Below are positions 6,138 to 21,902 of a stretch of 32,000 nucleotides of DNA, one piece after another (the stretch's first letter is position 1; the number at the start of each line of letters is the position of its first letter). A model generated the notes under the pieces. That model was not told the origin of the DNA. It saw only the letters and a list, made by a program, of their open reading frames with translations, and did not search any database. The position numbers and the translations under genes were made by a program. Location of the stretch: contig NC_017039.1 in assembly GCF_000284455.1 (NCBI RefSeq), positions 3,240,001 through 3,272,000 of the forward strand. The letters run 5' to 3'. The DNA is from Synechocystis sp. PCC 6803 substr. PCC-P (GTDB lineage Bacteria; Cyanobacteriota; Cyanobacteriia; Cyanobacteriales; Microcystaceae).

Positions 6138-7154
6138 TTGCCATCACCGATACGCGTTGCCATCCTGGGGGCCACTGGGGCCGTTGGCACAGAATTACTG
6201 GAGTTACTGGCCAGCCGGAATTTTCCCCTGGCAGAATTAAAACTTTTGGCCTCGCCCCGTTCTGCGGGTAAAACCCTGGAGTTCCAAGGAGAAAAGTTAC
6301 CGATCCAGGCAGTGGATGGTTCAGCGTTTAAAGGCTGTGACTTGGTGTTGGCTTCCGCCGGTGGTTCCACTTCCAAGCGTTGGGCAGAGGAAATTACCAA
6401 AGCCGGAGCGGTGATGGTGGACAATTCCAGCGCTTTTCGCATGGTGCCGGAAGTGCCCCTAGTGGTACCGGAAATTAATCCCGAAGCGGCCCAAAACCAC
6501 CAAGGCATCATTGCCAACCCCAACTGCACGACGATTTTAATGGGGGTAGCCATCTATCCCCTGCATCAGCTCCAACCTATTAAACGCATTGTGGTGGCCA
6601 CCTACCAGTCTGCCAGTGGGGCCGGGGCCATGGCCATGGAAGAAGTGAAGCACCAAAGCCGGGACATCCTGGAGGGAAAAATTCCCCAAGCTGAGATTTT
6701 GCCCTATCCTTTGGCTTTTAACCTCTTTCCCCACAACTCCCCCATCACAGCTAACCACTACTGTGAGGAGGAAATGAAAATGGTGCAGGAAACCCGGAAA
6801 ATCTTTGCCGCAGAAGATATACGCATCACGGCCACCTGTGTGCGGGTACCTGTGCTCCGGGCCCACTCAGAAGCGGTCAACTTGGAATTTGCCACCCCAT
6901 TCCCGGTGGAATTGGCCAAAACGGCGATCGCCAAAGCTCCGGGGGTAAAACTGGTGGAGGATTGGCAAAAAAATTATTTCCCCATGCCCATGGATGCCAC
7001 AGGCCAGGACGACGTGTTGGTAGGACGTATTCGCCAAGATATTTCCCACCCCAATGGTTTGGACCTGTGGTTGTGCGGTGATCAAATTCGTAAAGGGGCA
7101 GCCCTCAATGCGGTGCAAATCGCCGAATTATTGGTGGAGCGGGGGTGGCTGTAG
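6138..7154 (+). CDS. asd: Aspartate-semialdehyde dehydrogenase
   Basis: 338 aa. N-terminal NAD(P) fold VAILGATGAVG and active-site Cys context IANPNCTT. The start codon is TTG at 6138, preceded by a strong Shine-Dalgarno GGAGGA at 6125-6130. Confidence 0.95.
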   Translation: MPSPIRVAILGATGAVGTELLELLASRNFPLAELKLLASPRSAGKTLEFQGEKLPIQAVDGSAFKGCDLVLASAGGSTSKRWAEEITKAGAVMVDNSSAFRMVPEVPLVVPEINPEAAQNHQGIIANPNCTTILMGVAIYPLHQLQPIKRIVVATYQSASGAGAMAMEEVKHQSRDILEGKIPQAEILPYPLAFNLFPHNSPITANHYCEEEMKMVQETRKIFAAEDIRITATCVRVPVLRAHSEAVNLEFATPFPVELAKTAIAKAPGVKLVEDWQKNYFPMPMDATGQDDVLVGRIRQDISHPNGLDLWLCGDQIRKGAALNAVQIAELLVERGWL

Positions 7155-7213
7155 AATTTTTCCCAACCCATCCATGGTTACTTGCCCGCTGCCCTTTTTC
7201 GTTGAGATAGTCT

Positions 7214-8119
7214 ATGGCTGATTTTGTAAGCACTTCCCCCTTTGGCCCTGTGTTAACTGCGATGGTTACCCCCTTCAATGCCGATGGTGGGGTGGATTAT
7301 GGGGTAGCGGAAAAATTGGCTGACCATCTCATCACCCATGGCAGTGACGGCCTGGTGGTCTGTGGCACCACGGGGGAATCTCCCACCCTTTCCTGGGAGG
7401 AGGAGCATGAGCTATTTCGGGTGGTTAAACAAACCGTCGGCGATCGGGGTTCCGTCATTGCCGGCACTGGGTCTAACTGTACCCGGGAGGCCATGGAAGC
7501 AACCCAGATTGCGGCCAAGTTGGGAGTGGATGGTTCCCTCCAGGTAGTGCCCTACTATAACAAGCCTCCCCAGGAAGGTTTATTGGCCCATTTCCAGGCG
7601 ATCGCCAATTGTGCGCCGGAGTTGCCCCTGATGTTGTACAACATTCCCGGCAGAACGGGCCAGAGCCTAGCCCCGGAAACGGTTTACCGTTTAGCGGAAG
7701 TGGAAAACATTGTGGCCATCAAAGAAGCCACCGGCAGTTTGGAGCAGGCTTCCCTAATTCGGGCCCATACCCCCGATGATTTTGCCATCTATGCCGGGGA
7801 TGATGTGCTGACTCTTCCTTTATTGGCCGTGGGAGGGGCCGGGGTGGTCAGTGTGGCCAGTCATCTGGTCGGCGATCGCCTGCAGGCCATGGTGCAGCAT
7901 TTTGCCCAGGGAGCAACGGCCCAAGCCCTCGAAATCCATTTACAGCTAATACCCCTATTTAAAATTCTTTTCTGCGCCACCAATCCCATCCCAGTCAAAA
8001 CAGCCCTGGGACTCCAGGGTTGGCCCGTAGGATCGTTCAGACCTCCCCTTTGTGCTCTGTCCCCTGGCCACACCGAACAGTTACGAGACGTACTAAGGGA
8101 TTTAGCCTTACTTCCCTAG
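7214..8119 (+). CDS. dapA: 4-hydroxy-tetrahydrodipicolinate synthase (dihydrodipicolinate synthase)
   Basis: 301 aa. Motifs GTTGES and YNIPGRTG, and Schiff-base Lys context VAIKEATG. It lies 59 nt downstream of asd on the same strand, so a likely asd-dapA operon. Confidence 0.95.
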
Positions 8120-8342
8120 GGTAAAGAACTTGGGGATAAATATTCGATTAACCCAAGGAAGATAGACCGAATCAATTGGGAAACTTGACCTTGGCGATAC
8201 CAGTCAAAGAATGGCAGTCACAAGCTGAAATGATCTTTGATCAAATTTAATCAATTACCATCAACTCCATGGCTAAATCCCTGCCCAGTGTCGATGATTT
8301 CTCAATTTTTTTCTCAGAATAGGTACCTATCCGGAATGTATA

Positions 8343-8351
8343 TGCTAGAAT
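8343..8351 (+). promoter_or_regulatory. Candidate extended -10 promoter element (TGcTAGAAT) inside the long leader upstream of RNase J
   Basis: The sequence tatGcTAGAATggc matches TGnTATAAT at 8 of 9 positions. There is no good -35, which extended -10 promoters do not require. It would place a TSS near 8358-8360 and give a ~455-nt 5' UTR. This is motif only, with no transcript data. Confidence 0.3.
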
Positions 8352-8812
8352 GGCATGAACTTAAGAGCGAAGTAAGTTTTTCGATTCCGTCCAAACCTGA
8401 ATAGATAATCCATCCCATATGCGAGCTAGTTCATTACACCGATTAGCTAAAGGCTTCAGCGTCTTCTTTCCATTTTCGATACTTTCCGAGCCCAGAATGA
8501 GCTAAATTTTTTCTGAATCAGTCTTCGTTTTTACCTTCTGGCATTAGGGCTTGCCCTCTCCCCACCGGCTCCAAAGATTGCAAATACATTCACTCCTTGG
8601 GATGTTCTCAAAACTCGGTTCTATCCGTTTCTATAAATTCCCCAAAAACAAGTGGAATGCTAATCCAAAGATTGAATTGAATCGGTCGTTTGCTGATTGC
8701 TTAGCCCCGTTTTTGCTCTGCCCGGACCTCAGTTTGTTCTTCAATTTCTTCAAGTTGCACTGCGACTGTTGATTCTTAACTAGCTAAATTACAACGTTTT
8801 TTTATTTACACT

Positions 8813-10735
8813 ATGGCTAAAAATACTCAAACCCAAGCCCTCAAAATTCTTCCCCTCGGTGGCCTGCACGAAATTGGTAAAAATACCTGCGTCTTTGAAT
8901 ATGACGATGAAATTTTACTGCTTGATGCGGGGCTAGCTTTCCCCACCGACGACATGCACGGCGTTAATGTTGTACTGCCGGACATGACCTACCTGAGGGA
9001 AAACCGGGAGAAAATCAAGGGCATGGTGGTTACCCACGGCCACGAAGACCACATTGGTGGCATTGCCTATCACCTCAAGCAGTTTGACATTCCCATTATC
9101 TACGGCCCTCGGTTAGCCATGGCCCTGTTACGGGACAAGCTGGAGGAAGCCGGTATGTTGGAGCGCACCAATTTGCAGACCGTCTCTCCCCGGGAAATGG
9201 TGCGTTTGGGCAAATCCTTTGTGGTGGAATTTATTCGTAACACCCACTCCATCGCCGACAGCTATTGTCTAGCTATTCACACACCTCTGGGGGTAGTGAT
9301 GCACAGTGGAGATTTTAAAATCGACCACACTCCCATTGACGGGGAATTTTTCGACCTGCAAAAGGTGGCGGAGTATGGCGAAAAAGGGGTGCTCTGTTTA
9401 CTGAGTGACTCCACCAATGCGGAAGTGCCTGGCATTACCCCCTCTGAAGCGTCTGTTATCCCCAACCTGGACCGGGTTTTTTCCCAGGCGGAAGGCCGTT
9501 TGATGGTGACCACCTTTGCTTCTTCGGTGCACCGGGTCAATATCATCCTCAGCTTGGCCCAAAAACATCAGCGGAAAGTAGCGGTGGTGGGGCGATCAAT
9601 GCTCAATGTTATTGCCCATGCCCGTAAATTGGGCTACATCAAATGCCCCGATAACTTATTCGTGCCCCTCAAAGCAGCCCGCAATTTGCCCGACCAACAA
9701 CAACTAATTTTGACCACTGGCTCCCAGGGAGAACCTCTGGCGGCCATGACCCGCATTTCCAACGGTGAGCATCCCCAGATTAAAATTCGCCAGGGGGATA
9801 CAGTGGTCTTTTCCGCTAATCCCATCCCCGGTAATACCATTGCGGTGGTCAACACCATTGATCGCCTGATGATGCAGGGAGCCAATGTAATTTACGGCAA
9901 GCATCAGGGCATCCACGTTTCTGGCCATGCTTCCCAGGAAGAACACAAAATGTTGTTGGCCCTTACTCGACCTAAATTCTTTGTCCCCGTCCATGGGGAA
10001 CACCGTATGTTGGTCAAGCATTCCCAGATGGCCCAGGCCCAGGGTATTCCCAGCGAAAATATTGTTATTGTCAATAACGGCGATGTAATTGAACTGACCG
10101 GCGATCGCATCCGGGTGGCAGGACAAGTTCCTTCCGGCATTGAATTGGTGGATCAAGCGGGTATTGTCCATGAGAGCACCATGGCTGAACGGCAACAAAT
10201 GGCCGAAGACGGTTTGGTGACGGTGGCGGCAGCCCTAAGTAAAACTGGCACACTGTTAGCCTATCCTGAGGTACATTGCCGGGGTGTGGTGATGACCATT
10301 CAGCCTAAGTTGTTGGAAGAACTAATTGTCCGCACCATCGAGAATTTCCTCACAGAACGCTGGTCAGAGTTCACCCATGGTTCCAACGGCTCCACAGAGG
10401 TTAGCTGGAATGCGCTGCAAAAAGAATTGGAGTCTAGCTTGCAACGCCTGATCAAACGGGAATTACAGAGTAGCCCCATGGTTTTACTGATGTTGCAAAC
10501 CGACACCCCCATCGAATTGGATCAGGTTCCCCAGAATGTAAGCACTGTCAGTGCGACTTCTGCTACACCAGCCCCCCGCAAAAAAGTGGTCCTGACTAAA
10601 ACCCCAGAACCAAAAGTGAAAGCTAAACCAGAAAAGAAAGTGGTCACCACTGCCGAGCCTAGCGCCCAACCGGTCAGTACCACTAAGGTTTACCGTCGTA
10701 GCCGCAAACGCTCTACCACTTCTGTTTCTTCCTAA
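8813..10735 (+). CDS. rnj: Ribonuclease J (metallo-beta-lactamase / beta-CASP RNase) with an extra basic low-complexity C-terminal tail
   Basis: 640 aa. N-terminus LKILPLGGLHEIGKNTCVFEYDDEILLLDAG, motif II HGHEDHIGG, beta-CASP segments and HVSGHASQEE. The canonical C-terminal domain ends around ...SSPMVLLMLQ. It is followed by a ~78-aa tail rich in K, R, P, T and S. Confidence 0.93.
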   Translation: MAKNTQTQALKILPLGGLHEIGKNTCVFEYDDEILLLDAGLAFPTDDMHGVNVVLPDMTYLRENREKIKGMVVTHGHEDHIGGIAYHLKQFDIPIIYGPRLAMALLRDKLEEAGMLERTNLQTVSPREMVRLGKSFVVEFIRNTHSIADSYCLAIHTPLGVVMHSGDFKIDHTPIDGEFFDLQKVAEYGEKGVLCLLSDSTNAEVPGITPSEASVIPNLDRVFSQAEGRLMVTTFASSVHRVNIILSLAQKHQRKVAVVGRSMLNVIAHARKLGYIKCPDNLFVPLKAARNLPDQQQLILTTGSQGEPLAAMTRISNGEHPQIKIRQGDTVVFSANPIPGNTIAVVNTIDRLMMQGANVIYGKHQGIHVSGHASQEEHKMLLALTRPKFFVPVHGEHRMLVKHSQMAQAQGIPSENIVIVNNGDVIELTGDRIRVAGQVPSGIELVDQAGIVHESTMAERQQMAEDGLVTVAAALSKTGTLLAYPEVHCRGVVMTIQPKLLEELIVRTIENFLTERWSEFTHGSNGSTEVSWNALQKELESSLQRLIKRELQSSPMVLLMLQTDTPIELDQVPQNVSTVSATSATPAPRKKVVLTKTPEPKVKAKPEKKVVTTAEPSAQPVSTTKVYRRSRKRSTTSVSS

Positions 10736-10749
10736 GATCCGGTATTGTT

Positions 10750-10790
10750 TTGGCTGGGGTTCTATCTATTGGGCCCCGGCCAATTTCTTT
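10750..10790 (+). terminator. Probable intrinsic terminator downstream of rnj
   Basis: TTGGCTGGGG (10750-10759) pairs with CCCCGGCCAA (10774-10783). This gives a 10-bp stem with one G-U pair and a 14-nt loop. A T-rich run TTTCTTTGT follows immediately. Confidence 0.55.
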
Positions 10791-10819
10791 GTCAGTCCGG
10801 TAATTGTTGAGCAAAATTA

Positions 10820-11554
10820 ATGTCCACTGTAATTCCTACCTCCCAAGAACCTGTCACCCTTCCCAATGAAATTCTAGAAATTTCCATCAGCATTGCAGTC
10901 AAGGAGTTAGACCCAACCCTAGTCAATGAACAGTTTTTGAAGTTCAGTGGCATTGTGTCCAACGAATGGGAATTGAACCAACAGCCAGTGGTAAGTAAAG
11001 CTGGTTCCCAATTGGTGTTTAAAAATGGGCTCAGCATTGTGGCCCAGCCCCGCTCCCTAACGTTTTTAGAAGGGATGAATGATAAAACGGCGGAAGTGGT
11101 AACCGTGGGCAAGGTCGCCAGTGCCTTTGTGGAAAAATTACCCAATGCCCAATACAACGGCGTGGTAGTAACCCCCAAATGTTTAATTCCCCTACCGGAT
11201 CAAAACGATGGGGCTCGGAAGTTCATCACCGGTACTTTGCTGGCATCCGGTGCCTGGCAAGATTTGGGCAAGGCCCCCGTACAAGCGGCGGTGGAATTCA
11301 CCTATCTTTTGGAAGGCTGTCAATTTAACCTCAAAGTTAACCAGGCAACTTTGCAGATTCCCGATCGCCAGGCAGTGAGTGCGTTGTTATTTGCGGGTAA
11401 CTTCAATTACAGCTTGAATAATCCCAATCCCCAGGAACGGGTCAGCGTGGCCAAACAGTACATTGAAGCGTGGCAATCCGACTTGGATACTTTCCGGGGC
11501 ATTGTCCACGAAAAATTCTTGGCGGAGCAACAACCCCAAACGGTGTTTGGTTAA
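10820..11554 (+). CDS. Hypothetical protein, 244 aa, no recognisable motif
   Basis: Uninterrupted ATG-initiated ORF in a gene-dense co-directional run. Its amino-acid composition is balanced, unlike the antisense ORFs. It fits exactly between the rnj terminator and coaE. I cannot assign any family from the sequence. Confidence 0.6.
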   Translation: MSTVIPTSQEPVTLPNEILEISISIAVKELDPTLVNEQFLKFSGIVSNEWELNQQPVVSKAGSQLVFKNGLSIVAQPRSLTFLEGMNDKTAEVVTVGKVASAFVEKLPNAQYNGVVVTPKCLIPLPDQNDGARKFITGTLLASGAWQDLGKAPVQAAVEFTYLLEGCQFNLKVNQATLQIPDRQAVSALLFAGNFNYSLNNPNPQERVSVAKQYIEAWQSDLDTFRGIVHEKFLAEQQPQTVFG

Positions 11555-11636
11555 TTCGGTATAACTATTTGGGGGTTTAACACCTCTAACATGGAGCAAT
11601 CAATCCGTAGAAATTTCCGTTGACCATACTTTATCC

Positions 11637-12242
11637 ATGGACACCAAGCCCCCTCGACAACGATTGATTGGTTTGACCGGGGGCATTGCTACGGGAAAAA
11701 GTACGGTTACGGATTATTTACAGCAAAAATACAGCGTCCCTATCCTCGACGCCGACCTCTATGCCCGCCAAGCAGTGGAACCGGGTTCTGAAATTCTAGT
11801 GGCGATCGCCAGGCGTTATGGCCCGGAAATTTTAGACCAACAGGGACAGTTAAAGCGCCAAGCCCTGGGGGAAATTGTCTTTAATAATGCTGAAGAAAAA
11901 CAATGGCTGGAGTCCCAAATTCACCCCTTTGTTGGGCGGTGTTTTCGGTCTGCCTTAGCTCAGTTAAAACAAGAGCAAACGGTGTTATTGAGCATTCCTC
12001 TATTGTTTGAAGCCCAGTTAACAGATTGGGTAACGGAAATTTGGGTAGTGACCTGCGGACCACAGCAACAGGTGGAACGATTGATCAAGCGCAACGGTTT
12101 GACGGAGGCAGAGGCTTTAGCTCGCATTACTAGTCAAATGCCCTTGGCGGAAAAGGTAGCTCTAGCGGATGTGGTGTTGGACAACTCCGGGCAAATTGCG
12201 GACCTAGAACCACAAATTATCAAGGCTTGGCATCACCGTTAA
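11637..12242 (+). CDS. coaE: Dephospho-CoA kinase
   Basis: 201 aa. N-terminal P-loop IGLTGGIATGKST followed by ...PILDADLYARQAV..., the typical CoaE layout and length. Confidence 0.9.
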   Translation: MDTKPPRQRLIGLTGGIATGKSTVTDYLQQKYSVPILDADLYARQAVEPGSEILVAIARRYGPEILDQQGQLKRQALGEIVFNNAEEKQWLESQIHPFVGRCFRSALAQLKQEQTVLLSIPLLFEAQLTDWVTEIWVVTCGPQQQVERLIKRNGLTEAEALARITSQMPLAEKVALADVVLDNSGQIADLEPQIIKAWHHR

Positions 12243-12387
12243 CATTTCCTTGCACTGATACTTCCATCAGGCGATCGCCAGGGCGAAAACTGGACTAAGA
12301 TTAAGTTCCGCAGAAACAAATCGAGCTCTATGCCGTCAGTGGGCATAAATCGCCAGAATTTTAACTTTTTAGACGCTACCATATTTA

Positions 12388-15300
12388 GTGTTTTGCCCCT
12401 ACAATGAGACTCCCCGCACACTAGATATGGAGTCTTGTTCCGGCAAGACCGATGGCAAAATGAATCACTTGCAAGAATGGCGGCAAAGTTGTGTAGACGA
12501 CCAACTAACCCGCCTCAATGTCACTCCCCTTTTAGGGGATGCCCCCGCCCAACATTTGCTTTATGCTGAAGCGCTCCAGCGCCGTAATGACGGCCGAGTT
12601 AGTGACGGTTTAATGAAACGTTATGCCCACGTGGCCTCGGGGGGCTGGTGGTGTTCTGGCATTGATTTACTGTCCGGGGAAAAAGATCTATGGGGGTGTT
12701 TTAAGCCCGATCGCCCGAGACAGGATGGGGAAAGCAGTAAGACCATTAAATATGAGCATCCTCCCAAAACACCCACGGGAATTTTTGCCCTGCGGGTGCC
12801 CCTCCATCTTTGGGAAAGGATTGCTGCTAAAGCTGGGGTAGTCCTGACAGAGGAGGATCAAGACCCAGACCAGCCGGATTTAGGTTTTTGGCAATGGTTG
12901 ATGGGCCATCCGGAAATTCCTCTGGTAATCACAGAAGGGGCAAAAAAGGCGGGTGCTTTACTCACGGCCGGTTACGGGGCGATCGCCTTACCAGGAGTCC
13001 ATAACGGTTACCGCACTCCTAGGGATGACCAGGGGCAACGGATCGGCAAATGCCAATTAATTCCCGCTTTGGGAAAATTAGCCGCTCCCGGCAGACAAAT
13101 TCTGATTGCTTTCGATCAAGACAGTAAACCCAAAACTATCCAGCAGGTGAATCTGGCCATTCAACGGTTGGGCTATTTGTTCAGTCGCCAAGGGTGTGAA
13201 GTCAAAGTTTTGCAATGGGAGCATCACCTTGGTAAGGGCGTTGATGATGTGATTGCCCACCAAGGCAGTGATTATCTACAACAGTTGGTCGGCAAGGCCC
13301 TGCCGCTGGAAATCTGGAAAGCCCAACGACTTAACCGCCTCACCCATAGCCGGGGGATGGAAGTGGAAGCCCGGTATTTACCTCCTTTAACCATTCCCGC
13401 TGAAGAAAAATTAATTGCCCTACAATCGCCAAAGGGCACGGGCAAAACGGAATTTCTCGCTCGCATTGTCCGCCAAGCCCAGGCCGAACACAGACCAGTG
13501 TTGGTCATTGGCCATCGCATTCGTTTAGTGCAGGAACTGTGCCACCGTTTTCAGTTGCCCTATGTGGGGGATTTATCTAGTTCCCCCCTAGCTCGCCAAA
13601 GGGGTTTTGGTCTGTGTATCGACTCCCTCCATGGCCATTCCCAAGCCCAGTTTGACCCGGAACAGTGGCAAGATTGCCTAATTATCATTGATGAAGTGGA
13701 GCAGGTGCTCTGGCATGGACTGAATTCCGATACCTGCCGTCGTCAGCGGGTGGCCATTCTCCGTAACCTCAAGCAACTTTTGCAACATAGCCTAGGGGGA
13801 GAAGGACAAATTTATGTGGCCGATGCGGATTTAACCGATGTTTCCCTCGATTATTTGATCAGCTTGAGTGGCATTCCCCTCCAACCCTACGTGATCCGTA
13901 ACCATTGGCAACCGGGGTTAGAAGAAGCATGGCCCATCTATCACTTTGGCGAAAATGACCCCAAGCAATTGGTCAAACAACTGTTGCATCACATTCGGGA
14001 GGGCGGTAAACCTTTCGTCTGTCTCTCAGCTCAAAAGCTCACCAGTGCCTGGGGCACCCGCAATCTGGAAGCCTACCTGAAAAAGCAGTTTCCCGATCGC
14101 CGCATTTTACGCATTGATGCCGAATCCCTATCCGATCCTCACCATCCTGCCCATGGCAGTTTGACCAACCTCAACCAAGTGTTGGCCGACTATGACATTG
14201 TGCTGAGTAGTCCGGCGGTGGAAACGGGGGTCAGCATTGACCTAAAAAATCATTTCACTTCCGTGTGGGGCATTGCCCAGGGCATCCAAACCGCCACTTC
14301 CGTTTGCCAATCCCTCAGCCGCATTCGCCAAAATATTCCCCGTTACCTCTGGGCCGCTAGCTATGGCTTTAACCAAGTGGGCAATGGAGCTACGGCCATT
14401 AGTAAGTTCCTCACCGCCGGCCATCGTTTGACGGAGGTTAATATCCGGCTGTTGCAACAATCGGATCTGGATAATTTGGATGATTTAGACACCGGTTTCC
14501 AGGCGGAATCTTTGCTCTGCTGGGCCAAAATGGCGGTGCGGATCAACCTGGCCATGGTCAATTATCGGGAATCCATTCTTGGGCTTTTGCACCAGGAAGG
14601 CCATCAGTTGTTGGGGCCGCCCCCAGCTTTACCGTCTTTGCCTGTTCCACCCAGCGATCCCGATCACCCCCTCAGTACGGTCGCTCCTCAGCCTTTGCAA
14701 CAGGCCATTGAAGCGGTGCGGGAACAAAATTACCTTGCCGACTGCCAGGCGATCGCCGACGCTAAACCCCTAAAAGAATTGGAATATCAACAGTTGAAGA
14801 AAAGGCTAGTGAAAAATAGCCACGAACGGCAACGGCTACGGCGCTACGAACTGGCCCAACGCTACGGTATTCCTGTGACGGCGGATCTGGTGCAAAAAGA
14901 TGACCAAAATTGGTATCAAAAACTGCGTTGGCATTACTTCCTCACCGTAGGCCGGCCATTCCTTGGCGATCGGGATGCCAAAATTGCCCGTTTACTATTG
15001 GATCAAGGACAAGGCAGTCTCTTTCTCCCGGACTTTAATGGTTCCCAATTGGGGGCCATCATCGGTACCTACGACATTATTGGCATTCCCATTCTGCTGG
15101 CCCATCCCCAACGGGAGTTGTGTGCCCTGGATGAGGACTTAATCGCCCTGGGTAAATTAGCCTTGGCTAACCGGGATGATATTAAAACGGTAGTGGGCAT
15201 TGGTTTAGCCAAAAATGCTAGCCCCATCACCATTGTCCGTCGTTTTCTGGAAAAGCTGGGCTTTGGGATCCAATTAACCCGTACGAAAACTGTAGAAAAA

Positions 15301-15498
15301 AAACGAGTGCGGATTTATCAAATCACCTGTCCCCAGGATGGACGAGAAAAGGTCTTTCAAGCTTGGCTCCAAGGCGATCGCCAATGTCCCGGCAGTTCGG
15401 AACAATGGATGGCGGAATATTGGAAAAAGTTACAGAGTTCCCCCAGGGCAGAGGAGCAACATCAACCCTTTGTGCAACTCAGCCTGGAGTTAGGATAA
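12388..15498 (+). CDS. Large Toprim/DUF3854-like primase domain fused to an SF2-type P-loop helicase, with an uncharacterised C-terminal domain (plasmid/phage Rep-like architecture)
   Basis: 1,036-aa ORF. The N-terminal part carries KYEHPPKTP, ITEGAKKA, IAFDQD and GKGVDD, i.e. the Toprim E / DxD / xGxDD pattern. The central part carries Walker A SPKGTGKTE, Walker B LIIIDEVEQ, SSPAVETGVSID and QSLSRIRQ, which resemble helicase motifs V and VI. A Pro-rich linker PPPALPSLPVPPSDPDHP follows, then a ~270-aa C-terminal region. The start is uncertain: GTG 12388, ATG 12427 (MESCSG...) or ATG 12460 (MNHLQEW...). Confidence 0.8.
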   Translation: MFCPYNETPRTLDMESCSGKTDGKMNHLQEWRQSCVDDQLTRLNVTPLLGDAPAQHLLYAEALQRRNDGRVSDGLMKRYAHVASGGWWCSGIDLLSGEKDLWGCFKPDRPRQDGESSKTIKYEHPPKTPTGIFALRVPLHLWERIAAKAGVVLTEEDQDPDQPDLGFWQWLMGHPEIPLVITEGAKKAGALLTAGYGAIALPGVHNGYRTPRDDQGQRIGKCQLIPALGKLAAPGRQILIAFDQDSKPKTIQQVNLAIQRLGYLFSRQGCEVKVLQWEHHLGKGVDDVIAHQGSDYLQQLVGKALPLEIWKAQRLNRLTHSRGMEVEARYLPPLTIPAEEKLIALQSPKGTGKTEFLARIVRQAQAEHRPVLVIGHRIRLVQELCHRFQLPYVGDLSSSPLARQRGFGLCIDSLHGHSQAQFDPEQWQDCLIIIDEVEQVLWHGLNSDTCRRQRVAILRNLKQLLQHSLGGEGQIYVADADLTDVSLDYLISLSGIPLQPYVIRNHWQPGLEEAWPIYHFGENDPKQLVKQLLHHIREGGKPFVCLSAQKLTSAWGTRNLEAYLKKQFPDRRILRIDAESLSDPHHPAHGSLTNLNQVLADYDIVLSSPAVETGVSIDLKNHFTSVWGIAQGIQTATSVCQSLSRIRQNIPRYLWAASYGFNQVGNGATAISKFLTAGHRLTEVNIRLLQQSDLDNLDDLDTGFQAESLLCWAKMAVRINLAMVNYRESILGLLHQEGHQLLGPPPALPSLPVPPSDPDHPLSTVAPQPLQQAIEAVREQNYLADCQAIADAKPLKELEYQQLKKRLVKNSHERQRLRRYELAQRYGIPVTADLVQKDDQNWYQKLRWHYFLTVGRPFLGDRDAKIARLLLDQGQGSLFLPDFNGSQLGAIIGTYDIIGIPILLAHPQRELCALDEDLIALGKLALANRDDIKTVVGIGLAKNASPITIVRRFLEKLGFGIQLTRTKTVEKKRVRIYQITCPQDGREKVFQAWLQGDRQCPGSSEQWMAEYWKKLQSSPRAEEQHQPFVQLSLELG
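12400..12405 (+). promoter_or_regulatory. Candidate -10 box (TACAAT) upstream of the primase-helicase gene
   Basis: TACAAT at 12400-12405 is 5 of 6 to consensus. If used, the TSS (~12412) would lie downstream of the GTG at 12388. That would favour the ATG at 12427 or 12460 as the true start. Motif only. Confidence 0.25.
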
Positions 15499-15519
15499 CT
15501 CCGACAAGAATGGCTAAGC

Positions 15520-17715
15520 CTAGGGCAACAATGCCTTGGCCCGATCGCCAAGGGCCTGGGCAGTTAGGCCGTTATAGGCCATCAGTTGTCCAGCGCTGGC
15601 GGTAGTTTCCCCCCGTTTCCAAGCAAATAGATCCCTGGGGCAAGCACTACGGAGTAGAACTGGTTCCAACATGGCTCCACTGCCACCGGTCACCCCAATC
15701 AACGCATCGCCACCAAACAGTTCGGTAAATTCAGCATCGCTCAAAAAGCCACTGTCCGCTTCGGAACAATCCTGCCATTGCACATCATGGGGACGGTACA
15801 AGCGCCGGGGATTAATTACCGAAACCACTTTTACCCCATAACCTTCACTTTCCAATTGACTGGCCGCTTCCAACACGGGAATTAGAGTCATATCGCCAAT
15901 TACTGCAAAAACAATGGTTTTAGAGCCAGTGCTGTTGTGGAGTAGGATGCCGCCTTTGGCTAAACCCTGACGATTTTGCTCCAACGTAGTGCGGATGGGC
16001 AAAGGAGACTTACTGGCGGTGATGGGAATGCCTTTGTTGCTGGTGGTTAACGCCCAGTCATAGCAAACCTGAATACCGTTGGCATCACAGGGGAAAAGGG
16101 GAAAAATATTCCCATTCCGCATCATAGCGGCAAAATAATTCTCAATTTCCGGCCGTTGGTGAGTCCAACCGTTGCGCCCTTGTTCCAACGCTCCCGCTGT
16201 AAACAGGGTAATGGTGGAAGGGGTAGGACGACGTAGCTCCGCCATGGCCTGGGTCACCGTCTGCCAAATGGGTAAACCGTTAATAGCAAAGGACTCGTAG
16301 GAACACCAGAGGGTACGGCCTCCAAACAAAGCTTGGGCGGCGGCCAGGCCAGCACAGGCATCTTCGCTCAGGGGTTCATAAACTTGGCCGTTGGGTTGTT
16401 GGAAATAATCCTCATCCACCGTGGGATGGACAATTTTTAGCCCAACGTTGATGTTATTGATCCCAGAAGCGGCGTTACCGTCGGCGTTGGTAACCACAAA
16501 GTTTGAATCCTGTTTGCCCACATGAACCACCAATTCCCCCATGGCGGTGGTGGCTACCTGTTTATCTTCTAGGGCAAACTCCTTCAGGGGCAGAGTACCC
16601 AGATCCGCTAAAGGTAAAACGGATTCCGTCACCACGGTTTGGGAGGCGGGGCCACCGTGGGAACGTTCAAAATTGGTCCGCACCAATTGCCAAGCTTCGG
16701 GGGATAGGGCCCGTTCTTGCAAAGCACTGACAATATAATCTTTATCTAAACTGTCGCCGGGATAGAGGTTGTGGGATTTGGCCCCGGATTTGTGGACTCC
16801 CGCTCCTTTTAGTTGTTTGACAATCAGAACCGTTAACGTACCACCAAGGGCCGCCTGGGCCGCTTTGTCGGTGGCCTCCAACACTGCCTGGGTAAAAGCT
16901 AACCGTTGTTGGAAAGAAAACTTGGTGCTGTCAACAAAATCCCCCGCTTGATTGCTGTCGTCAAAATCTTTGGCGTTGACCAGAATGACATTTTTAAAAC
17001 CGTTGCCCTGCCAGTAGTTAACCATGGCTTCATTGCTCTGGGTGGAAACCATGCTGTGGTGTTCTTGGCTAAAACCGTTCCAGACCAAAATGGGCAAAAA
17101 GTTTGTTACCTGGGGATAGGCCGTGTGGAAATGGCCAAAACTACTCATGATGTAGGGTTCCCCCAAACCACCATCTCCGATAGTTACGGGAAATAAAACG
17201 CCGGGATAAAGTTTTGCTCCGGCCATGGCGAAATGTTGACCTTGACCCAGGGGGCCTGCTGGAGCTAATAAGCCTGGGATTTGCCCTGAGAGGTGGCCCA
17301 ATAGGCCGTGCATTTCCCGGAACCGATCGCCAAGTTCTTGGACATTATTAATCCCCATGGCTTCCAGGGAACGATCCAAAAACATGGTGCTGTAAAAACC
17401 GGGGGCATGGTGGCCCACTTCCGTCACCGTATTTTTGTAGCCCAACATGACCAGAGCGGCGATCGCCTCCGCAATGCTGGCAAAACCGCCGGGGTGACCC
17501 GATTCTTTACTGGCTGTGGTTTGGAGCGTTAAATATCTGAGGGCATCCGCCGCCAACAAAGTTTGATACACCGCCTGGGGATCATTGGCAGAACTGATGG
17601 CCTTTGCCCCACTGGCGATCGCCGTTTCCTGGCCATAACGATCAAAATCCGGCAGGTTTTCACCGAAAAAGCGAATTCCTTGGCAAAAAGCAGGGGCGGT
17701 GGAGGCGACGGTCAT
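15520..17715 (-). CDS. Thiamine-diphosphate enzyme of the transketolase/phosphoketolase superfamily (divergent XFP-like, putative phosphoketolase)
   Basis: 731 aa. It has a GHPGGFASIAEAIAAL motif (transketolase-type N-terminal ThDP domain). Its ThDP/Mg motif GDGGLGEP...LPILVWNGFSQ resembles the phosphoketolase GDGE...LPILHLNGYKI pattern. It is shorter than the canonical ~800-aa XFP. Confidence 0.7.
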   Translation of the reverse strand: MTVASTAPAFCQGIRFFGENLPDFDRYGQETAIASGAKAISSANDPQAVYQTLLAADALRYLTLQTTASKESGHPGGFASIAEAIAALVMLGYKNTVTEVGHHAPGFYSTMFLDRSLEAMGINNVQELGDRFREMHGLLGHLSGQIPGLLAPAGPLGQGQHFAMAGAKLYPGVLFPVTIGDGGLGEPYIMSSFGHFHTAYPQVTNFLPILVWNGFSQEHHSMVSTQSNEAMVNYWQGNGFKNVILVNAKDFDDSNQAGDFVDSTKFSFQQRLAFTQAVLEATDKAAQAALGGTLTVLIVKQLKGAGVHKSGAKSHNLYPGDSLDKDYIVSALQERALSPEAWQLVRTNFERSHGGPASQTVVTESVLPLADLGTLPLKEFALEDKQVATTAMGELVVHVGKQDSNFVVTNADGNAASGINNINVGLKIVHPTVDEDYFQQPNGQVYEPLSEDACAGLAAAQALFGGRTLWCSYESFAINGLPIWQTVTQAMAELRRPTPSTITLFTAGALEQGRNGWTHQRPEIENYFAAMMRNGNIFPLFPCDANGIQVCYDWALTTSNKGIPITASKSPLPIRTTLEQNRQGLAKGGILLHNSTGSKTIVFAVIGDMTLIPVLEAASQLESEGYGVKVVSVINPRRLYRPHDVQWQDCSEADSGFLSDAEFTELFGGDALIGVTGGSGAMLEPVLLRSACPRDLFAWKRGETTASAGQLMAYNGLTAQALGDRAKALLP

Positions 17716-17858
17716 GGGAAAAAATCCTAGTCCAATGAAAAGTAACGATTGAGGCTAATTTTACCCCCTTGGGGAACACCAGATAATCCCCTATTCTGCC
17801 ATTAAAAAAGATTGAGAAAAAGCTATGGTCGCTCAATCCCAATCTTTATGGTTTCCTT

Positions 17859-17959
17859 GCCCCCTAAATCTCCTCACTAAAGCTCCGGCAAGTTTGGGGG
17901 ACTTTAAATCTTATTTTCCCCCCAAAAAAATTTGGGGGGCCAGGGGGGCTTTTAAAACA
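17859..17959. repeat. Copy A of a ~100-nt intergenic hairpin repeat (G/C-clamped, MITE/REP-like)
   Basis: It aligns end to end with 24956-25050. Both run gccccctaaat..cctcactaaa.c..cggcaa.tttgg..gacttt.aa...ttcccccca...ttggggggc.aggggggcttttaaaaca. Internal hairpin CCCCCCAAA/TTTGGGGGG at 17918-17939. The ends GCCCCCT and AGGGGGGC are mutually complementary. Confidence 0.8.
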
Positions 17960-17963
17960 GGCT

Positions 17964-19073
17964 CTAGGCGGCGGAGGTTTGCAGACATTTGATGATGGAA
18001 GCTTTTTCCAATAATCCCACCACTTCTCCCGAAGGTTGCACCACCAAAAGTTCCGACAGTTTCTGTTGATCTAACAACTGGGCCACTTCAAACAAAGATT
18101 GATTGGCGTTAACGGTGACCATCTGTTGGGGATACTGCATCAAGCTATCCACTGTGACCTGGGGCCAATCGGAAGTGGGGACGTGTTTGATGTCTTCCGT
18201 AGCAAGTACACCTAACAGTTGATTGTCGGCACCAATAACCAAGAACCGTCGCCAGGGGGTTTTACCAATCACATAATCGTTAGCAAATTCCCGAATATTT
18301 AACCCGGCAGGAATAATGGGGCTGTTGGGAATAACCGCATCTTCAGCAGTAAAGGCTTCCATTTGCTCTTTGACCTGGGCGTTGCGGGCGGAGGAACCAG
18401 CATTTTGTAACAGGAACCAACCGATCAAAATGGTCCAGAAGCTACCGATGGGCAGAATATTTAAAATACCTAAGCTACCAATGGCGATCGCCAACCAACC
18501 GAAACCCTGGCCCACCCGACTAGCAATGAGAATACCTTTGTTTTGATTGCCCGTGATTTGCCACACAATGGATTTGAGCACATTGCCGCCGTCCAAAGGT
18601 AAACCAGGAATGAGGTTAAACAATGCCAGGGCGAGGTTGATCATGCCCAATAAACCAATGATGGCCTGCCCCGGCACAGGTAGGGGGATTTGGGTACCAA
18701 CTATGGTTAAACCCAAAAAGAGCACTAAACTCACCGCCGGCCCGGCGATCGCCACCGCAAAAGCTTGCCAGGGAGTGTTGGATTCCTTTTCTAAACTCGC
18801 TAGACCACCGAACAAAAACAGAGTGATGGATTTAACTTCAATGCCCTGGGCTAAGGCAACCAAACTATGGCCCAACTCGTGGGCGACAACGGAAGCAAAG
18901 AGGAGTAAAGCTGTAATTAACCCCAAAATCCAGGGTGTGCCACCGGAAAGTTGGGGAAAGCGGGCTAAGTCTTGGCCATAGCTCAGGGTCACCAATCCTA
19001 AAATTAAAAACCAGGATGGGTTGACGTAAAAAGGAATGCCAAACAGACTGCCGACGCGGATATTGTTGTTCAT
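17964..19073 (-). CDS. Site-2 protease family (peptidase M50) membrane metalloprotease with C-terminal CBS domain pair
   Basis: HExxH zinc motif VAHELGHSL in a hydrophobic helix, second conserved motif NLIPGLPLDGG, multiple TM segments and a C-terminal CBS-like pair. The track ORF extends to 19103. I prefer the ATG at 19073 (MNNNIRVGSLFGIPF...). Confidence 0.9.
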   Translation of the reverse strand: MNNNIRVGSLFGIPFYVNPSWFLILGLVTLSYGQDLARFPQLSGGTPWILGLITALLLFASVVAHELGHSLVALAQGIEVKSITLFLFGGLASLEKESNTPWQAFAVAIAGPAVSLVLFLGLTIVGTQIPLPVPGQAIIGLLGMINLALALFNLIPGLPLDGGNVLKSIVWQITGNQNKGILIASRVGQGFGWLAIAIGSLGILNILPIGSFWTILIGWFLLQNAGSSARNAQVKEQMEAFTAEDAVIPNSPIIPAGLNIREFANDYVIGKTPWRRFLVIGADNQLLGVLATEDIKHVPTSDWPQVTVDSLMQYPQQMVTVNANQSLFEVAQLLDQQKLSELLVVQPSGEVVGLLEKASIIKCLQTSAA

Positions 19074-19232
19074 AAACTGCCCCCCTAAACTGAGGCTTAA
19101 CATGAATTAATTGTAACGAGATGTTAAGAATTGCCTGAGTGGGATAACCGTCGGGGTTAGTTCGGTTAAGCACCTTTCCCCCAATCCACCGTAGGATCTA
19201 GTCAACAGGCCTCGATTTCCGTTAACTTGCCC

Positions 19233-19889
19233 ATGTTTTCCCCCAGCGTTTACTCAGAAATTATCGCTACCCTCCCCCCCAGTGTACGGTTGGTGGCGGT
19301 AACCAAAACCAAGGCGATCGCCGACATCGAAGCGGCCTACGGAGCGGGCATCCGGGATTTTGCCGAAAGTCGCATCCAAGAAGCTTTACCAAAAATCGAA
19401 GCTTTAGCAAATTACCAAGATATTAACTGGCATTTTATCGGACGTTTACAGAGTAACAAGGCCCGCAAAGTGGTGGAAAATTTTACCTATATCCATTCCG
19501 TTGATAATTTGGCGATCGCCGTCAAACTAGACCGCATTGCTGAGGAGTTGAACAAATTTCCCCAGGGATTATTACAAATCAAGTTACTGCCGGACGAGAA
19601 TAAATCCGGTTGGACAAGGGAAGAATTAAAGCTGGATTTGCCCCAACTGGAGCTATTAAAAAATCTAAAAATTTGTGGCTTAATGACTATTTTACCCCTG
19701 GGTCTTTCCCCTGGCGATCGCCAACTAACCTTTGGGGAACTAAAAAATCTGGCCACAGCCATCAACCAACAATCTAGCCTGTCATTAACGGAACTATCCA
19801 TGGGCATGTCCGGAGATTACCCAGAAGCCATTGCCGCCGGAGCTACCATGATCCGCTTGGGTACCATTCTCTTTGGCGATCGACTCTAA
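19233..19889 (+). CDS. YggS/PROSC-family pyridoxal-phosphate homeostasis protein (PipY-like)
   Basis: ~218 aa. PLP-lysine context RLVAVTKTK, then HFIGRLQSNK and a C-terminal MIRLGTILFG. The track start at 19227 is TTG; an ATG lies two codons later at 19233. Confidence 0.9.
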   Translation: MFSPSVYSEIIATLPPSVRLVAVTKTKAIADIEAAYGAGIRDFAESRIQEALPKIEALANYQDINWHFIGRLQSNKARKVVENFTYIHSVDNLAIAVKLDRIAEELNKFPQGLLQIKLLPDENKSGWTREELKLDLPQLELLKNLKICGLMTILPLGLSPGDRQLTFGELKNLATAINQQSSLSLTELSMGMSGDYPEAIAAGATMIRLGTILFGDRL

Positions 19890-19890
19890 A

Positions 19891-20286
19891 CTATACTCCC
19901 GCCCATAACAAAGAGACTCCATAATTTTTAAACATTGAATCTGCACTAATTAGCAGCATATTTTCTGTTTGTGCCTGGGCAATGATAATTCTGTCAAACG
20001 GATCACGGTGATGTAGGGGCAATGTCGCAACTTGCAGGGCATGGCGGGTTTTAATGTCCAGGAACTCAGCACCCAATTTCACCATGCGACTGAGAATGTA
20101 GTCGTCAATATTTTCTGGCAAGGGCAGTTTACCGATGGAAGTCTTAATTGACATTTCCCAAATACTGGCAACAGAAAGCCATATTTCGTTTGTCTCATCT
20201 ATGATCTGGGAAATTGCATCTTCGTTCAATTTTTCCGGCTCAGTAAACCACCATAACCAGCACTGGGTATCCAACAAAAGTTTCAC
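19891..20286 (-). CDS. vapC: PIN-domain toxin, VapC family
   Basis: PIN acidic residues lie in (V/M)KLLLDTQ, SVASIWEM, HHRDPFDRIIIAQ and LISAD. I prefer the GTG start at 20286, which has GAAGGA 6 nt upstream and lies 11 nt after the antitoxin stop. The track alternative is TTG at 20313, which overlaps the antitoxin by 16 nt. Confidence 0.85.
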   Translation of the reverse strand: MKLLLDTQCWLWWFTEPEKLNEDAISQIIDETNEIWLSVASIWEMSIKTSIGKLPLPENIDDYILSRMVKLGAEFLDIKTRHALQVATLPLHHRDPFDRIIIAQAQTENMLLISADSMFKNYGVSLLWAGV

Positions 20287-20297
20287 GTTAATCCTTC

Positions 20298-20534
20298 TCA
20301 AGATAATGGCCAAATATCATTTGGTAAAGGATCGTTAAAGTCATCTGGCACTACAAATAATCCTCGATCTACCCCTAAGCTGGAGCATCGATCCACGGAT
20401 TTTTGCCTTTGCAGAGGAACCAACTTAGCAATGGGAATACCCTGGTCAGCAACGATGACTTCTTCCCCTGGTTTGATACTGTACAAAAGCTCAGGAAGAT
20501 TGATTTCTATTTGGTCAACATTGACGGTCTCCAT
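20298..20534 (-). CDS. vapB: Phd/YefM-like type II antitoxin (VapB partner of the PIN toxin)
   Basis: 78 aa from the ATG at 20534. The sequence METVNVDQIEINLPELLYSIKPGEEVIVADQGIPIAKLVPL has the Phd/YefM N-terminal pattern, with a C-terminal ...VVPDDFNDPLP motif common in antitoxins paired with PIN toxins. It sits immediately upstream of the toxin. The track ORF extends to 20576. Confidence 0.75.
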   Translation of the reverse strand: METVNVDQIEINLPELLYSIKPGEEVIVADQGIPIAKLVPLQRQKSVDRCSSLGVDRGLFVVPDDFNDPLPNDIWPLS

Positions 20535-20645
20535 AGTGGATCCTAGTTTCTCTGGATTAACGCTAACTCCGATCATAGCTTGCTCTCATCGGGAATTATT
20601 TGACGGCACCAGAATATGAGTAAACAAATGGCGATCGCCGTTTAT

Positions 20646-21902
20646 TTAACTAGCTCTGTGGACAATGGCAAAGGCGGAAGTGTAACCGTGTAAAAAGGTC
20701 TGAGCACCCACCTGGCCAATTTCTCCATTACAAAAGAAACCACCCAGGGCTACTCCAGGAAAATATTGCCCAAACATCTGGCTATCAAAATTGGGGGTAC
20801 CATACAGGCCATAGCCTCTGCCCAAACAGGAAAACATCAATGCCCCGATCGCCGTAGAAGAAGATTGATTAGCCTCTCCTTCGGTGTAATGGCGCAAAAG
20901 AATTTGTAAGTCGTCGGCGGAAGTTTCCCGGTCCCGCAAATGGAATTGTAACCTTTGCCCCTTTCTCACCCGGTCTCCAATGGCGATCGCCCCTTGGCGG
21001 GGATCCACCCCCAGTAAGTTGCGAATGAGAAAATCCCCCGGTTGCAGAGTTAATTTAAATTCATCGCTGGCCACCCCCACAAAAAGGGAACTTTGGGCCA
21101 ATTCCTGATCTTTGGGACTGAGGGTGGGAATCAGTTTCTGCAGGCTAGCCAGGGGCGTTTCCAACACCACCGTGCCACTGTCTGCATCCTTACCTTGGAT
21201 TTCTGTAATGATATTTCTCTGCCCCTGGTTAACCACAAAGGGTTCGCCAATAGGCCGACAGCCCTGGGCCACCACACTACCGAGGCGAATATTGCCCGCT
21301 AAGGCTACGCCGATAAAACCATCTCCATAACGGCCAGCGGGATGATCAGAAGATTGCAAAAATAAACTGCCCCCCATGGCCACATTTTCCCCACTGGCTA
21401 AGCCACCCACTTTTGTTGCTTGGGGATAGGCAAAATCCAACCCGGCTAAAAAGTCTGTGATGCCCCCAGTCATCGGGTCGGCCAGAATAATAAAATCTGC
21501 GCCACTGGCCGGATCAACCCCCATTAAATCCACCCAACTTTGGGGCGGTGCGTCTAAATCGGGCATTCCTTCCCCATGGACATAGAATGGCGTCACCGTC
21601 ACCCCTGGCAATTGGGCCACCGTTAAGCTCAATGCCACTTCTCCTTCTACTTCCTGCACTGTGGCATTGTTTTCCATGCCAATAATGCCGCCCCCCAAGC
21701 AACCGATTAAATTCGGTACTGACAACTTTTCTTGCACTAGGGGCATTAACCGGGCCGCATCGCTGGCAAAGCTGGAGGAAAGGAAGATAATCGCCAAGTC
21801 CCATTGTCCCTGACCCCCCACCTTGGCGATCGCCTCATCCAATGCCCTCTCCAGGGATGGTCTGGTAGAAAGAGCATTAACCCACCGCAGAGAATGTGTC
21901 AT
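20646..21902 (-). CDS. FIST-domain (FIST_N plus FIST_C) putative small-ligand sensor protein
   Basis: ~418 aa from the ATG at 21902 (MTHSLRWVNALS...). Its length and segments such as ...DLAIIFLSSSF..., ...GGLASG... and a C-terminal LGGFFCNGEIG are as I remember for FIST proteins. The track ORF extends to 21989 but that start lacks support. Confidence 0.75.
   Translation of the reverse strand: MTHSLRWVNALSTRPSLERALDEAIAKVGGQGQWDLAIIFLSSSFASDAARLMPLVQEKLSVPNLIGCLGGGIIGMENNATVQEVEGEVALSLTVAQLPGVTVTPFYVHGEGMPDLDAPPQSWVDLMGVDPASGADFIILADPMTGGITDFLAGLDFAYPQATKVGGLASGENVAMGGSLFLQSSDHPAGRYGDGFIGVALAGNIRLGSVVAQGCRPIGEPFVVNQGQRNIITEIQGKDADSGTVVLETPLASLQKLIPTLSPKDQELAQSSLFVGVASDEFKLTLQPGDFLIRNLLGVDPRQGAIAIGDRVRKGQRLQFHLRDRETSADDLQILLRHYTEGEANQSSSTAIGALMFSCLGRGYGLYGTPNFDSQMFGQYFPGVALGGFFCNGEIGQVGAQTFLHGYTSAFAIVHRAS

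Follow-up and report, generated by a model that had tools for sequence, protein, structure and literature searches.

Several plasmids of cyanobacteria depend on replication proteins of the CyRepA group. Slr7037 (CyRepA1) is required for the autonomous replication of pSYSA (PMC9978351), and CyRepA2 of pCC5.2 drives broad-host-range vectors (PMC10079941). CyRepA homologs have been tabulated in 145 cyanobacteria, with chromosomal ones in 80, and the chromosomal homologs, among them syn:slr0554, were said to need validation (Ohdate et al., 2024; PMC10899382). Here, we analyzed slr0554, which lies on the plus strand of the Synechocystis sp. PCC 6803 chromosome, in a window of 32,000 nucleotides (contig NC_017039.1, positions 3,240,001 to 3,272,000); all coordinates below count from the first letter of this window, where the open reading frame (ORF) extends from 12388 to 15498. 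Judged from its sequence, slr0554 encodes a CyRepA1 family protein that is complete and has its catalytic residues intact. Rather than a recent plasmid insertion, the gene is part of a discrete chromosomal subfamily with vertical inheritance in Chroococcales, Pleurocapsales and some Oscillatoriales. A conserved pair of DNA boxes precedes the genes of this subfamily. An earlier note on this stretch had treated the gene as unnoticed; however, RefSeq already names its product a CyRepA1 family protein (1023 aa, start ATG 12427), and the survey of Ohdate et al. (2024) had already placed it in the family and listed chromosomal copies. We found no paper in our literature search that gives the chromosomal CyRepA copies a function or the status of a separate clade, and in the literature searched the vertical clade, its purifying selection, its retention in reduced genomes lacking dnaA and the box pair were unreported.

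The closest described systems are the plasmid CyRepA1 proteins, namely Slr7037, the pAQ1 Rep (SYNPCC7002_B0001) and the pANL Rep, to which the slr0554 product is 38.8, 40.7 and 26.9% identical, respectively. They share with it the same full-length three-part architecture, a match to NCBIfam model NF042913 ("plasmid replication protein, CyRepA1 family") and identical catalytic residues. For slr0554, this match covers ORF residues 340-959 and reaches 504.2 bits against a cutoff of 200, and the protein aligns over its full length with 78 plasmid-borne copies (94-97% coverage in tblastn), which bears out the family membership suggested in the earlier note. Unlike the plasmid genes, slr0554 is chromosomal and vertically inherited, and upstream of it the two-box element is found instead of a control locus of the pSYSA type (ssr7036 with the overlapping antisense RNA asRNA1). 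Plasmid CyRepA1 genes, in turn, are devoid of a box pair of the slr0554 type. CyRepA2 (ORF B of pCC5.2) also combines DUF3854 with a DEXDc helicase, and a similar predicted structure has been reported (PMC10079941); by its description as the Rep of a small rolling-circle plasmid, from a separate and smaller clade, it is set apart from slr0554. The parts of the slr0554 coding region are as follows:

12460-15498, plus strand: coding sequence of slr0554 read from the conserved start, with 1012 aa and a stop codon (N-terminal conservation, NF042913 match)
12460-13335, plus strand: DnaG-type primase RNA-polymerase domain, with N-terminal subdomain and Toprim/DUF3854 part, as predicted (DUF3854, AlphaFold2 model, Foldseek)
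12748-12774, plus strand: KYEHPPKTP, in the N-terminal subdomain of the primase core
12928-12951, plus strand: ITEGAKKA, with the Toprim Glu codon at 12934-12936
13111-13122, plus strand: FDQD, with DxD at 13114-13122
13231-13248, plus strand: GKGVDD, Toprim DD
13339-14616, plus strand: superfamily 2 (SF2) helicase core, two RecA-like domains and a helical extension, as predicted (weak Pfam matches, phrog_4913, Foldseek, BFVD)
13426-13452, plus strand: Walker A SPKGTGKTE, Lys codon at 13444-13446
13678-13704, plus strand: Walker B LIIIDEVEQ, DE at 13690-13695
14206-14241, plus strand: SF2 motif V SSPAVETGVSID
14308-14331, plus strand: SF2 motif VI QSLSRIRQ
14617-14670, plus strand: Pro-rich, variable, disordered linker (residues 737-754; predicted local distance difference test score, pLDDT, below 50; identity of about 10% within the clade)
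14671-15495, plus strand: C-terminal helical domain, predicted DNA-binding (specificity) domain (AlphaFold2 model; NF042913 reaches residue 959)

All the motifs listed in the earlier note were present in this single ORF, at or within a few bases of where it had placed them, FDQD having been put at 13124-13132. Its proposal of a DUF3854-type primase fused to an SF2 helicase was also borne out, by the Pfam family DUF3854 (PF12965; E = 3.7e-52, ORF residues 167-295) and by SF2 fold matches, and could be refined to a whole DnaG polymerase domain. Pfam matches of the ResIII/AAA type over the Walker A region were weak, and the helicase part matched phrog_4913 ("replication") with E = 1.8e-31. Across 84 aligned homologs, the catalytic residues do not vary. 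More specifically, the Toprim Glu, DxD and DD, the Walker A Lys, the Walker B DE and the motif VI Arg are conserved in 23 other chromosomal and 10 plasmid relatives, with three D-to-E changes at the second Asp of DxD as the only exceptions; loss of such residues in close orthologs, which the earlier note had named as evidence that would count against its reading, did not occur.

We modeled the full-length protein with AlphaFold2 using the 84 homologs as input (mean pLDDT 81, predicted template modeling score 0.70), and the first 330 residues separately (pLDDT 83). The eight best Foldseek matches of the N-terminal model in the PDB were all DnaG RNA-polymerase domains (2au3, 4edg, 5guj, 5w33, 1eqn, 1dde, 3b39, 1dd9), with 312-321 aligned columns and E values of 1e-5 to 8e-3, and other folds appeared only after a gap. 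In this model, the N-terminal third is thus a complete DnaG-type primase core and more than a bare Toprim fold: its 300 residues match the RNA-polymerase domain of DnaG, including the Toprim E/DxD/DD residues, at 9-15% identity. Unlike DnaG, the slr0554 product is devoid of the zinc-binding domain and of the C-terminal DnaB-binding domain, and has its own SF2 helicase fused instead. A Pfam scan of the protein found no zinc-finger family, and in the N-terminal model just two short helices precede the polymerase domain. A quartet of His and Cys residues in the primase N-terminal subdomain (H57, C65, C80 and H100, counted from the Met at 12460) is invariant or nearly so, plasmid-type homologs included, and could form an embedded metal site in place of the missing DnaG domain.

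For the full-length model, the best PDB match was herpes simplex virus 1 UL9 bound to OriS (9hgj and 9hgi; 800-857 aligned columns with E values of 3.5e-14 to 1e-11), and the next SF2 helicases (Mfd, RecQ-type and DEAD-box; about 1e-7) trailed it by six to seven orders of magnitude. Likewise, the top named matches among the viral structures of BFVD were the "replication origin-binding protein" and "helicase-primase" of giant viruses and herpesviruses (E values of 1e-27 to 1e-14). The modeled helicase and C-terminal region therefore resemble the origin-binding proteins of these viruses, in which an SF2 helicase is likewise followed by a DNA-recognition domain. The global superposition on UL9 was poor, however (TM score of about 0.4, root-mean-square deviation of about 19 Å), and the domain arrangement either differs or is mis-modeled. 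In sequence, PF02399, the UL9 family, gave no match to the slr0554 protein at E ≤ 1 and only faint precomputed matches in some clade members; a single-sequence search of the PDB returned no match, and a profile search reached UL9 at a non-significant E value of 0.2. UL9 also differs in having no fused primase and in a recognition sequence unrelated to the slr0554 boxes. Primase and helicase are joined on one polypeptide for replicon initiation in phage T7 gp4/Twinkle and in the alpha protein of phage P4 as well, but their helicases belong to SF4 and SF3, respectively, not to SF2, and the P4 alpha primase has a different fold.

The C-terminal domain of about 270 residues, which the earlier note could not assign, is helical in the model and ends with three helices and a long beta-hairpin (about 15133-15384), an arrangement that is winged-helix-like. 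It is the most divergent part of the protein, with 56% identity inside the chromosomal clade, 32% to plasmid Reps and 27% to Slr7037, compared with 47% between the catalytic domains and those of the plasmid Reps. From the model, we infer that it is a sequence-specific DNA-binding domain.

Comparison with plasmids separated the chromosomal genes clearly. Clade members are 52-83% identical to slr0554, whereas a tblastn search of 72,556 plasmids gave 255 records, none of them above 48% identity (at most 49% on a MAFFT alignment). The protein database contained many full-length homologs with 57-83% identity, and those with long contigs were on chromosomes of megabase size (Gloeothece PCC 7424, Crocosphaera ATCC 51142, Stanieria NIES-3757, Pleurocapsa PCC 7319, Lyngbya aestuarii and Synechocystis LKSZ1). 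Thus, while CyRepA1 is described as plasmid-borne, this gene is chromosomal in Synechocystis and all its close relatives. Stanieria NIES-3757 has both types, a chromosomal copy 56.7% identical to slr0554 and a plasmid copy with 43.3% identity. In a library grouped at 50% identity, clade members fell into slr0554's own cluster and the next representatives were at most 47-48% identical; ten of these were looked up and came from contigs of 3-60 kb, one of them a Moorena plasmid. A protein scan of the genome collection matched only Synechocystis salina, over two contigs. The break in this ortholog (strain LEGE 00031) falls exactly in the Pro-rich linker (residues 749-753) and probably reflects the assembly of a GC-rich, repetitive stretch.

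In a neighbor-joining tree of 24 chromosomal and 10 plasmid proteins with 200 bootstraps, a phylogeny that the earlier note had proposed, the chromosomal set was monophyletic in 191 replicates. Its branches were short and its internal topology followed the species, grouping Synechocystis with Snowella, Crocosphaera with UCYN-A, Rippkaea with the spheroid bodies, the Pleurocapsales together, and Moorena with Symploca and Lyngbya; Crocosphaera, UCYN-A, Rippkaea and the spheroid bodies came together in all 200 replicates. Synteny, which the same note had wanted checked, turned out not to be conserved across orders, and vertical inheritance is for this reason argued here from the tree and from selection. 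Within families, traces of gene order remain: valS lies a few kilobases away in both the Synechocystis window and Snowella, a possibly split class-I tRNA synthetase gene is found at a similar distance in another fetched locus (L007), a Peptidase_M15 gene adjoins the clade gene in Stanieria and Pleurocapsa (Pleurocapsales), and the UCYN-A1 and UCYN-A2 contexts are collinear. All 14 contexts examined had housekeeping neighbors and no adjacent integrase, and two of them (L008, L024) had IS605-type transposase genes at a distance of 1.6-3 kb. In Crocosphaera subtropica ATCC 51142, dnaN, which codes for the beta clamp, is two genes upstream of the chromosomal CyRepA gene (L005, 4389-5570); this linkage was absent from the other genomes examined and may be a coincidence.

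The clade is, from these alignments, under purifying selection as strong as that on its housekeeping neighbors. The ratio of nonsynonymous to synonymous substitution rates (dN/dS) between the UCYN-A1 and UCYN-A2 orthologs was 0.081, compared with 0.076-0.121 for six neighboring housekeeping genes, and was 0.07 for the primase, 0.07 for the helicase and 0.107 for the C-terminal part. Between PCC 6803 and S. salina, it was 0.04-0.05. Full-length members were present in the reduced genomes of UCYN-A1 (1.44 Mb) and of UCYN-A2, the Braarudosphaera endosymbiont (1.49 Mb), as well as in five spheroid-body genomes of diatoms (2.5-3.1 Mb). These endosymbiont copies have 1009-1013 aa and are 65-67% identical to the chromosomal copy of Crocosphaera. 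Both the UCYN-A and the spheroid-body genomes have been reported to be without dnaA (PMC6315102; PMC7198777).

Between the coaE stop and ATG 12460, a spacer of 217 nt, we found a two-box element:

12379-12390, plus strand: Box L CCATATTTAGTG, overlapping the -35 position of a putative promoter
12400-12405, plus strand: -10-like hexamer TACAAT between the boxes, part of the putative promoter
12421-12432, plus strand: Box R CTAGATATGGAG, 42 bp after Box L; the minus strand at 12419-12430 reads CCATATCTAGTG

The consensus sequences are TCcATATtTAGTGTTTT for Box L and ACACTAnATATAGTG for Box R, with the shared core CYAnATnTAGYG. Each box is a quasi-palindrome; consequently, the pair forms an inverted repeat in Synechocystis but a direct one in most other lineages. 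In the whole window, the Box L 12-mer and its near-reverse-complement at 12419-12430 were the only exact matches, and one site with a single mismatch lay in the coding sequence. The pair was conserved upstream of clade genes in 13 genomes. Among 80 metagenomic loci that were fetched by protein similarity alone, it was present at 54 of the 59 clade loci (at least 52% identity) versus none of the 17 plasmid-type loci (40-46%), against a background of 1.9% of random 166-nt windows scoring positive. Start-to-start spacing was 40-44 bp and, in 36 of 43 distinct elements, 41-42 bp, that is, four helical turns; a TAnnnT hexamer followed 21-23 nt past the Box L start in 29 of the 43. A simple sigma-70 scan called no full promoter at the box region. 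Throughout 867 kb of fetched DNA, the pair occurred essentially only just upstream of clade genes. To our knowledge, the boxes bear no convincing resemblance to LexA or other known operators.

A conserved specificity domain together with a box pair at the gene's own promoter would be the pattern expected of a Rep with its cognate site, and we infer from it that the slr0554 protein may bind the boxes and regulate its own expression. An RNA hairpin formed by the two boxes was considered and rejected as the leading idea, given that most lineages have direct copies of the quasi-palindrome, that the left box is upstream of the likely -10 hexamer and that the spacer is about 30 nt. A search of 12000-15800 against Rfam gave no match, and the upstream element is therefore not a known RNA. 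Two metagenomic clade loci had extra boxes (L074, at 2258 and 2410; L079, at 2368 and 2408), either as a second pair about 150 nt upstream or as a third box at the same phase of about 40 bp, in an iteron-array-like manner. On pSYSA, a single CAAATTTAGTGTC, like Box L in 11 of 13 positions and without a second box, is located 115-130 nt upstream of slr7037 (L009, about 2520-2535) and could be ancestral or due to chance. In plasmid1 of Chondrocystis NIES-4102 (L017), where the CyRepA1 gene rep starts at 429, a 23-bp iteron (AAAACATCCACATCCCCCGATAA) occurs three times in tandem about 90-160 nt upstream of that start, which suggests that repeated binding sites 5' of rep are a general feature of CyRepA1 members.

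The element also bears on the start codon of slr0554. Three candidates were compared: GTG 12388 (longest ORF), whose position agrees with the single guide RNA (sgRNA) offsets of a published CRISPR interference (CRISPRi) target table and which the earlier note had adopted, ATG 12427 of RefSeq, and ATG 12460 (MNHLQEW). GTG 12388 is within Box L and ATG 12427 within Box R, that is, in a conserved non-coding element, and in the homolog alignment protein conservation sets in at ATG 12460. Because both earlier starts are inside the boxes and conservation begins only at the third, the gene is probably mis-started in databases and the real product most likely has 1012 aa.

It is acknowledged to be an unsettled matter how chromosome replication starts in Synechocystis, Picosynechococcus PCC 7002, Nostoc and those endosymbionts that have no dnaA. 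As the earlier note had stated for this lineage, dnaA is dispensable in PCC 6803, and also in Nostoc 7120 and PCC 7002; it is absent from Cyanobacterium, Geminocystis, UCYN-A, the spheroid bodies and Nostoc azollae (PMC7198777). One chromosomal CyRepA each is listed for PCC 6803, PCC 7002, Nostoc 7120, UCYN-A, both spheroid bodies and N. azollae, and none for S. elongatus, Prochlorococcus, nearly all marine Synechococcus and Thermosynechococcus (PMC10899382). In S. elongatus, dnaA is essential, and its complete loss needed the integration of an episomal plasmid, with replication then starting from the plasmid's origin. The only plasmid listed for S. elongatus, pANL, encodes a CyRepA1-family Rep and is presumably the one that integrated in those dnaA mutants. 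The correlation between chromosomal CyRepA and DnaA independence is suggestive, but it is confounded by phylogeny and not universal.

The likeliest of the readings, quite possible although short of probable, is that slr0554 encodes an autoregulated and site-specific initiator or primosome through which chromosomal synthesis could start or restart independently of DnaA; it would be one contributor and not the sole essential initiator. In such a mechanism, the C-terminal domain would recognize the two boxes, repress its own promoter in the manner of plasmid Rep autoregulation and mark the cognate loading site; the UL9-like SF2 motor would open the DNA at the boxes or at related sites, and the fused DnaG-like domain would lay the first RNA primer, from which replication of the chromosome could start or restart without DnaA. 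The main rival, which we regard as rather unlikely, is a replication-restart, repriming or repair factor that would serve as a self-contained primosome at stalled forks or damage in highly polyploid cells, with boxes that only control expression. Several observations weigh against an initiator, and some of them fit this rival well. Two genome-wide CRISPRi studies cover slr0554, with sgRNAs that target 12398-12434, that is, the box and promoter region: fitness was -0.86 to -1.08 (adjusted p values of 0.005-0.0125) in four high-CO2 conditions and near zero or positive elsewhere, whereas essential genes reach -3 to -5, so the defect is mild and condition-dependent. Only one box pair was found per fetched locus, and the inter-box spacer of Synechocystis, with about 50% GC, is not AT-rich and would make a poor unwinding element; the boxes may be an operator only. 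Replication in Synechocystis starts at multiple sites, more than a single site could account for. Both dnaA and CyRepA of any kind are missing from Cyanobacterium aponinum and C. stanieri, and in Geminocystis CyRepA is confined to plasmids (PMC10899382); since these dnaA-less, free-living genera manage without one, a chromosomal copy is not needed for DnaA-independent replication in general, and an slr0554-type protein cannot be a universal substitute for DnaA. Moreover, no Nostocales names appeared among the top matches (at least 55% identity), so the DnaA independence of Nostoc 7120 is not creditable to the slr0554 clade, and the Nostoc chromosomal copies, going by these matches, probably belong elsewhere in the CyRepA family. 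A restart role is also in line with a weak, non-significant local similarity to PriA in the NCBIfam scan. Nevertheless, the closest folds are origin-binding initiator helicases and not restart helicases, the family members that have been tested are all initiators (PMC9978351; PMC10079941), and the conserved specificity-type C-terminal domain with its co-conserved boxes suggests site-specific action.

In a stronger version of the initiator reading, the Synechocystis/Crocosphaera/Pleurocapsa lineage, the UCYN-A nitroplast and the spheroid bodies would all have the slr0554 clade as their missing DnaA-independent initiator, with the two-box element as a chromosomal origin, perhaps one of several; this we find doubtful, and less likely than the restart role. 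A chromosome-encoded Rep acting in trans on plasmids without a recognized rep is very unlikely. The demonstrated function of the family is plasmid replication and no Rep has been identified for pSYSM or pSYSG (PMC10899382), but these two plasmids had only chance-level single boxes and no box pair, a blastn search of PLSDB with the element found no match anywhere, and the clade is retained in Arthrospira, for which no plasmid is listed, and in UCYN-A and spheroid bodies, for which only chromosomes are listed. The latter genomes speak equally against a regulator or guardian of plasmid-chromosome relations (incompatibility, anti-plasmid action, control of copy number or ploidy) that would work through Rep-like DNA binding. 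The autoregulatory-looking promoter architecture would be compatible with such a role and many clade genomes also hold several plasmid CyRepA1 paralogs; however, the complete conservation of primase and helicase catalytic residues argues for enzymatic use, and we deem it highly improbable, more so than a Rep acting in trans. A last reading, in which the gene is the inert or decaying leftover of an old plasmid integration and has survived by chance, would account for the plasmid-family origin, the missing synteny across orders and the mild knock-down phenotype. Low dN/dS (0.04-0.09 across all three domains) and full-length retention in genomes of 1.4-3 Mb exclude it for practical purposes, and the invariant catalytic residues, the conserved promoter element, the significant CRISPRi fitness effects and the detection of the Arthrospira homolog as a protein spot (PMC2743650) point the same way.

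With this analysis, a vaguely noted chromosomal CyRepA homolog becomes a defined candidate: a constrained vertical subfamily with a co-conserved DNA element and the complete equipment of an initiator, namely a predicted DNA-recognition domain, a helicase and a primase in one chain. If slr0554 does fire replication, a plasmid replicon would have been domesticated by the chromosome, with a bearing on how organelle-like nitrogen-fixing endosymbionts replicate, and the strong form, if true, would explain how dnaA could be lost in endosymbionts. If it is not an initiator, the boxes and the clade would still mark a conserved autoregulated factor of DNA metabolism in bloom-forming and nitrogen-fixing cyanobacteria.

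Other published data on slr0554 are scattered. In Supplemental Data Set 2 of one CRISPRi study (PMC10615215), its fitness at high CO2 varied with the light, being positive under high light and negative under low or intermediate light, a pattern that resembles ndhD and ndhF in the same table. Its mRNA varies under manganese stress. AR-seq screens did not recover slr0554, which is uninformative because their inserts of 1.5-2.5 kb are too small for a 3-kb gene. The sgRNA target table of Yao et al. (2020) lists "intern slr0554" (Entry1945), an internal sense transcript unit of 170 nt at 14980-15149, in the part that codes for the C-terminal domain; since the next in-frame ATG is only at 15409, this unit is unlikely to encode a separate domain.

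Upstream of slr0554 are asd, dapA, a gene for RNase J, a 244-aa ORF and coaE. Downstream, a divergent gene of the XFP or thiamine diphosphate (ThDP) type, in convergent orientation, is followed by genes for a site-2 protease and a FIST protein and by valS. None of the signs of an integrated mobile element that we looked for (integrase or transposase, tRNA target, direct repeats, atypical composition) was present, as the earlier note had seen for the flanks between coaE and the ThDP gene: the ten flanking ORFs scanned for families (6138-24849) included no integrase or transposase, no tRNA genes were found at the locus, the only repeats bordering the gene were chance matches based on the highly iterated palindrome HIP1, and GC content, overall and at third codon positions, was the same as in the neighbors. 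HIP1 sites occur in slr0554 at 12979, 14749 (given as 14759 in the earlier note, which had the other two right) and 15374, with a density of 0.99 per kb; slr7037 and the Synechocystis plasmids have 0.5-0.7 per kb. Because plasmids carry HIP1 too, its density does not discriminate for chromosomal residence, and the idea of a long-resident chromosomal gene stands on phylogeny, selection and conservation in other chromosomes, but not on the HIP1 density from which it had been drawn. The 244-aa ORF (10820-11554, plus strand), between the RNase J gene and coaE, matched no Pfam family at E ≤ 1e-5. The 731-aa product of 15520-17715 (minus strand), the "ThDP enzyme", had weak matches to the phosphoketolase families XFP (E = 2e-12) and XFP_N (3e-8) and, from these matches, seems to be a divergent family member, not a canonical phosphoketolase.

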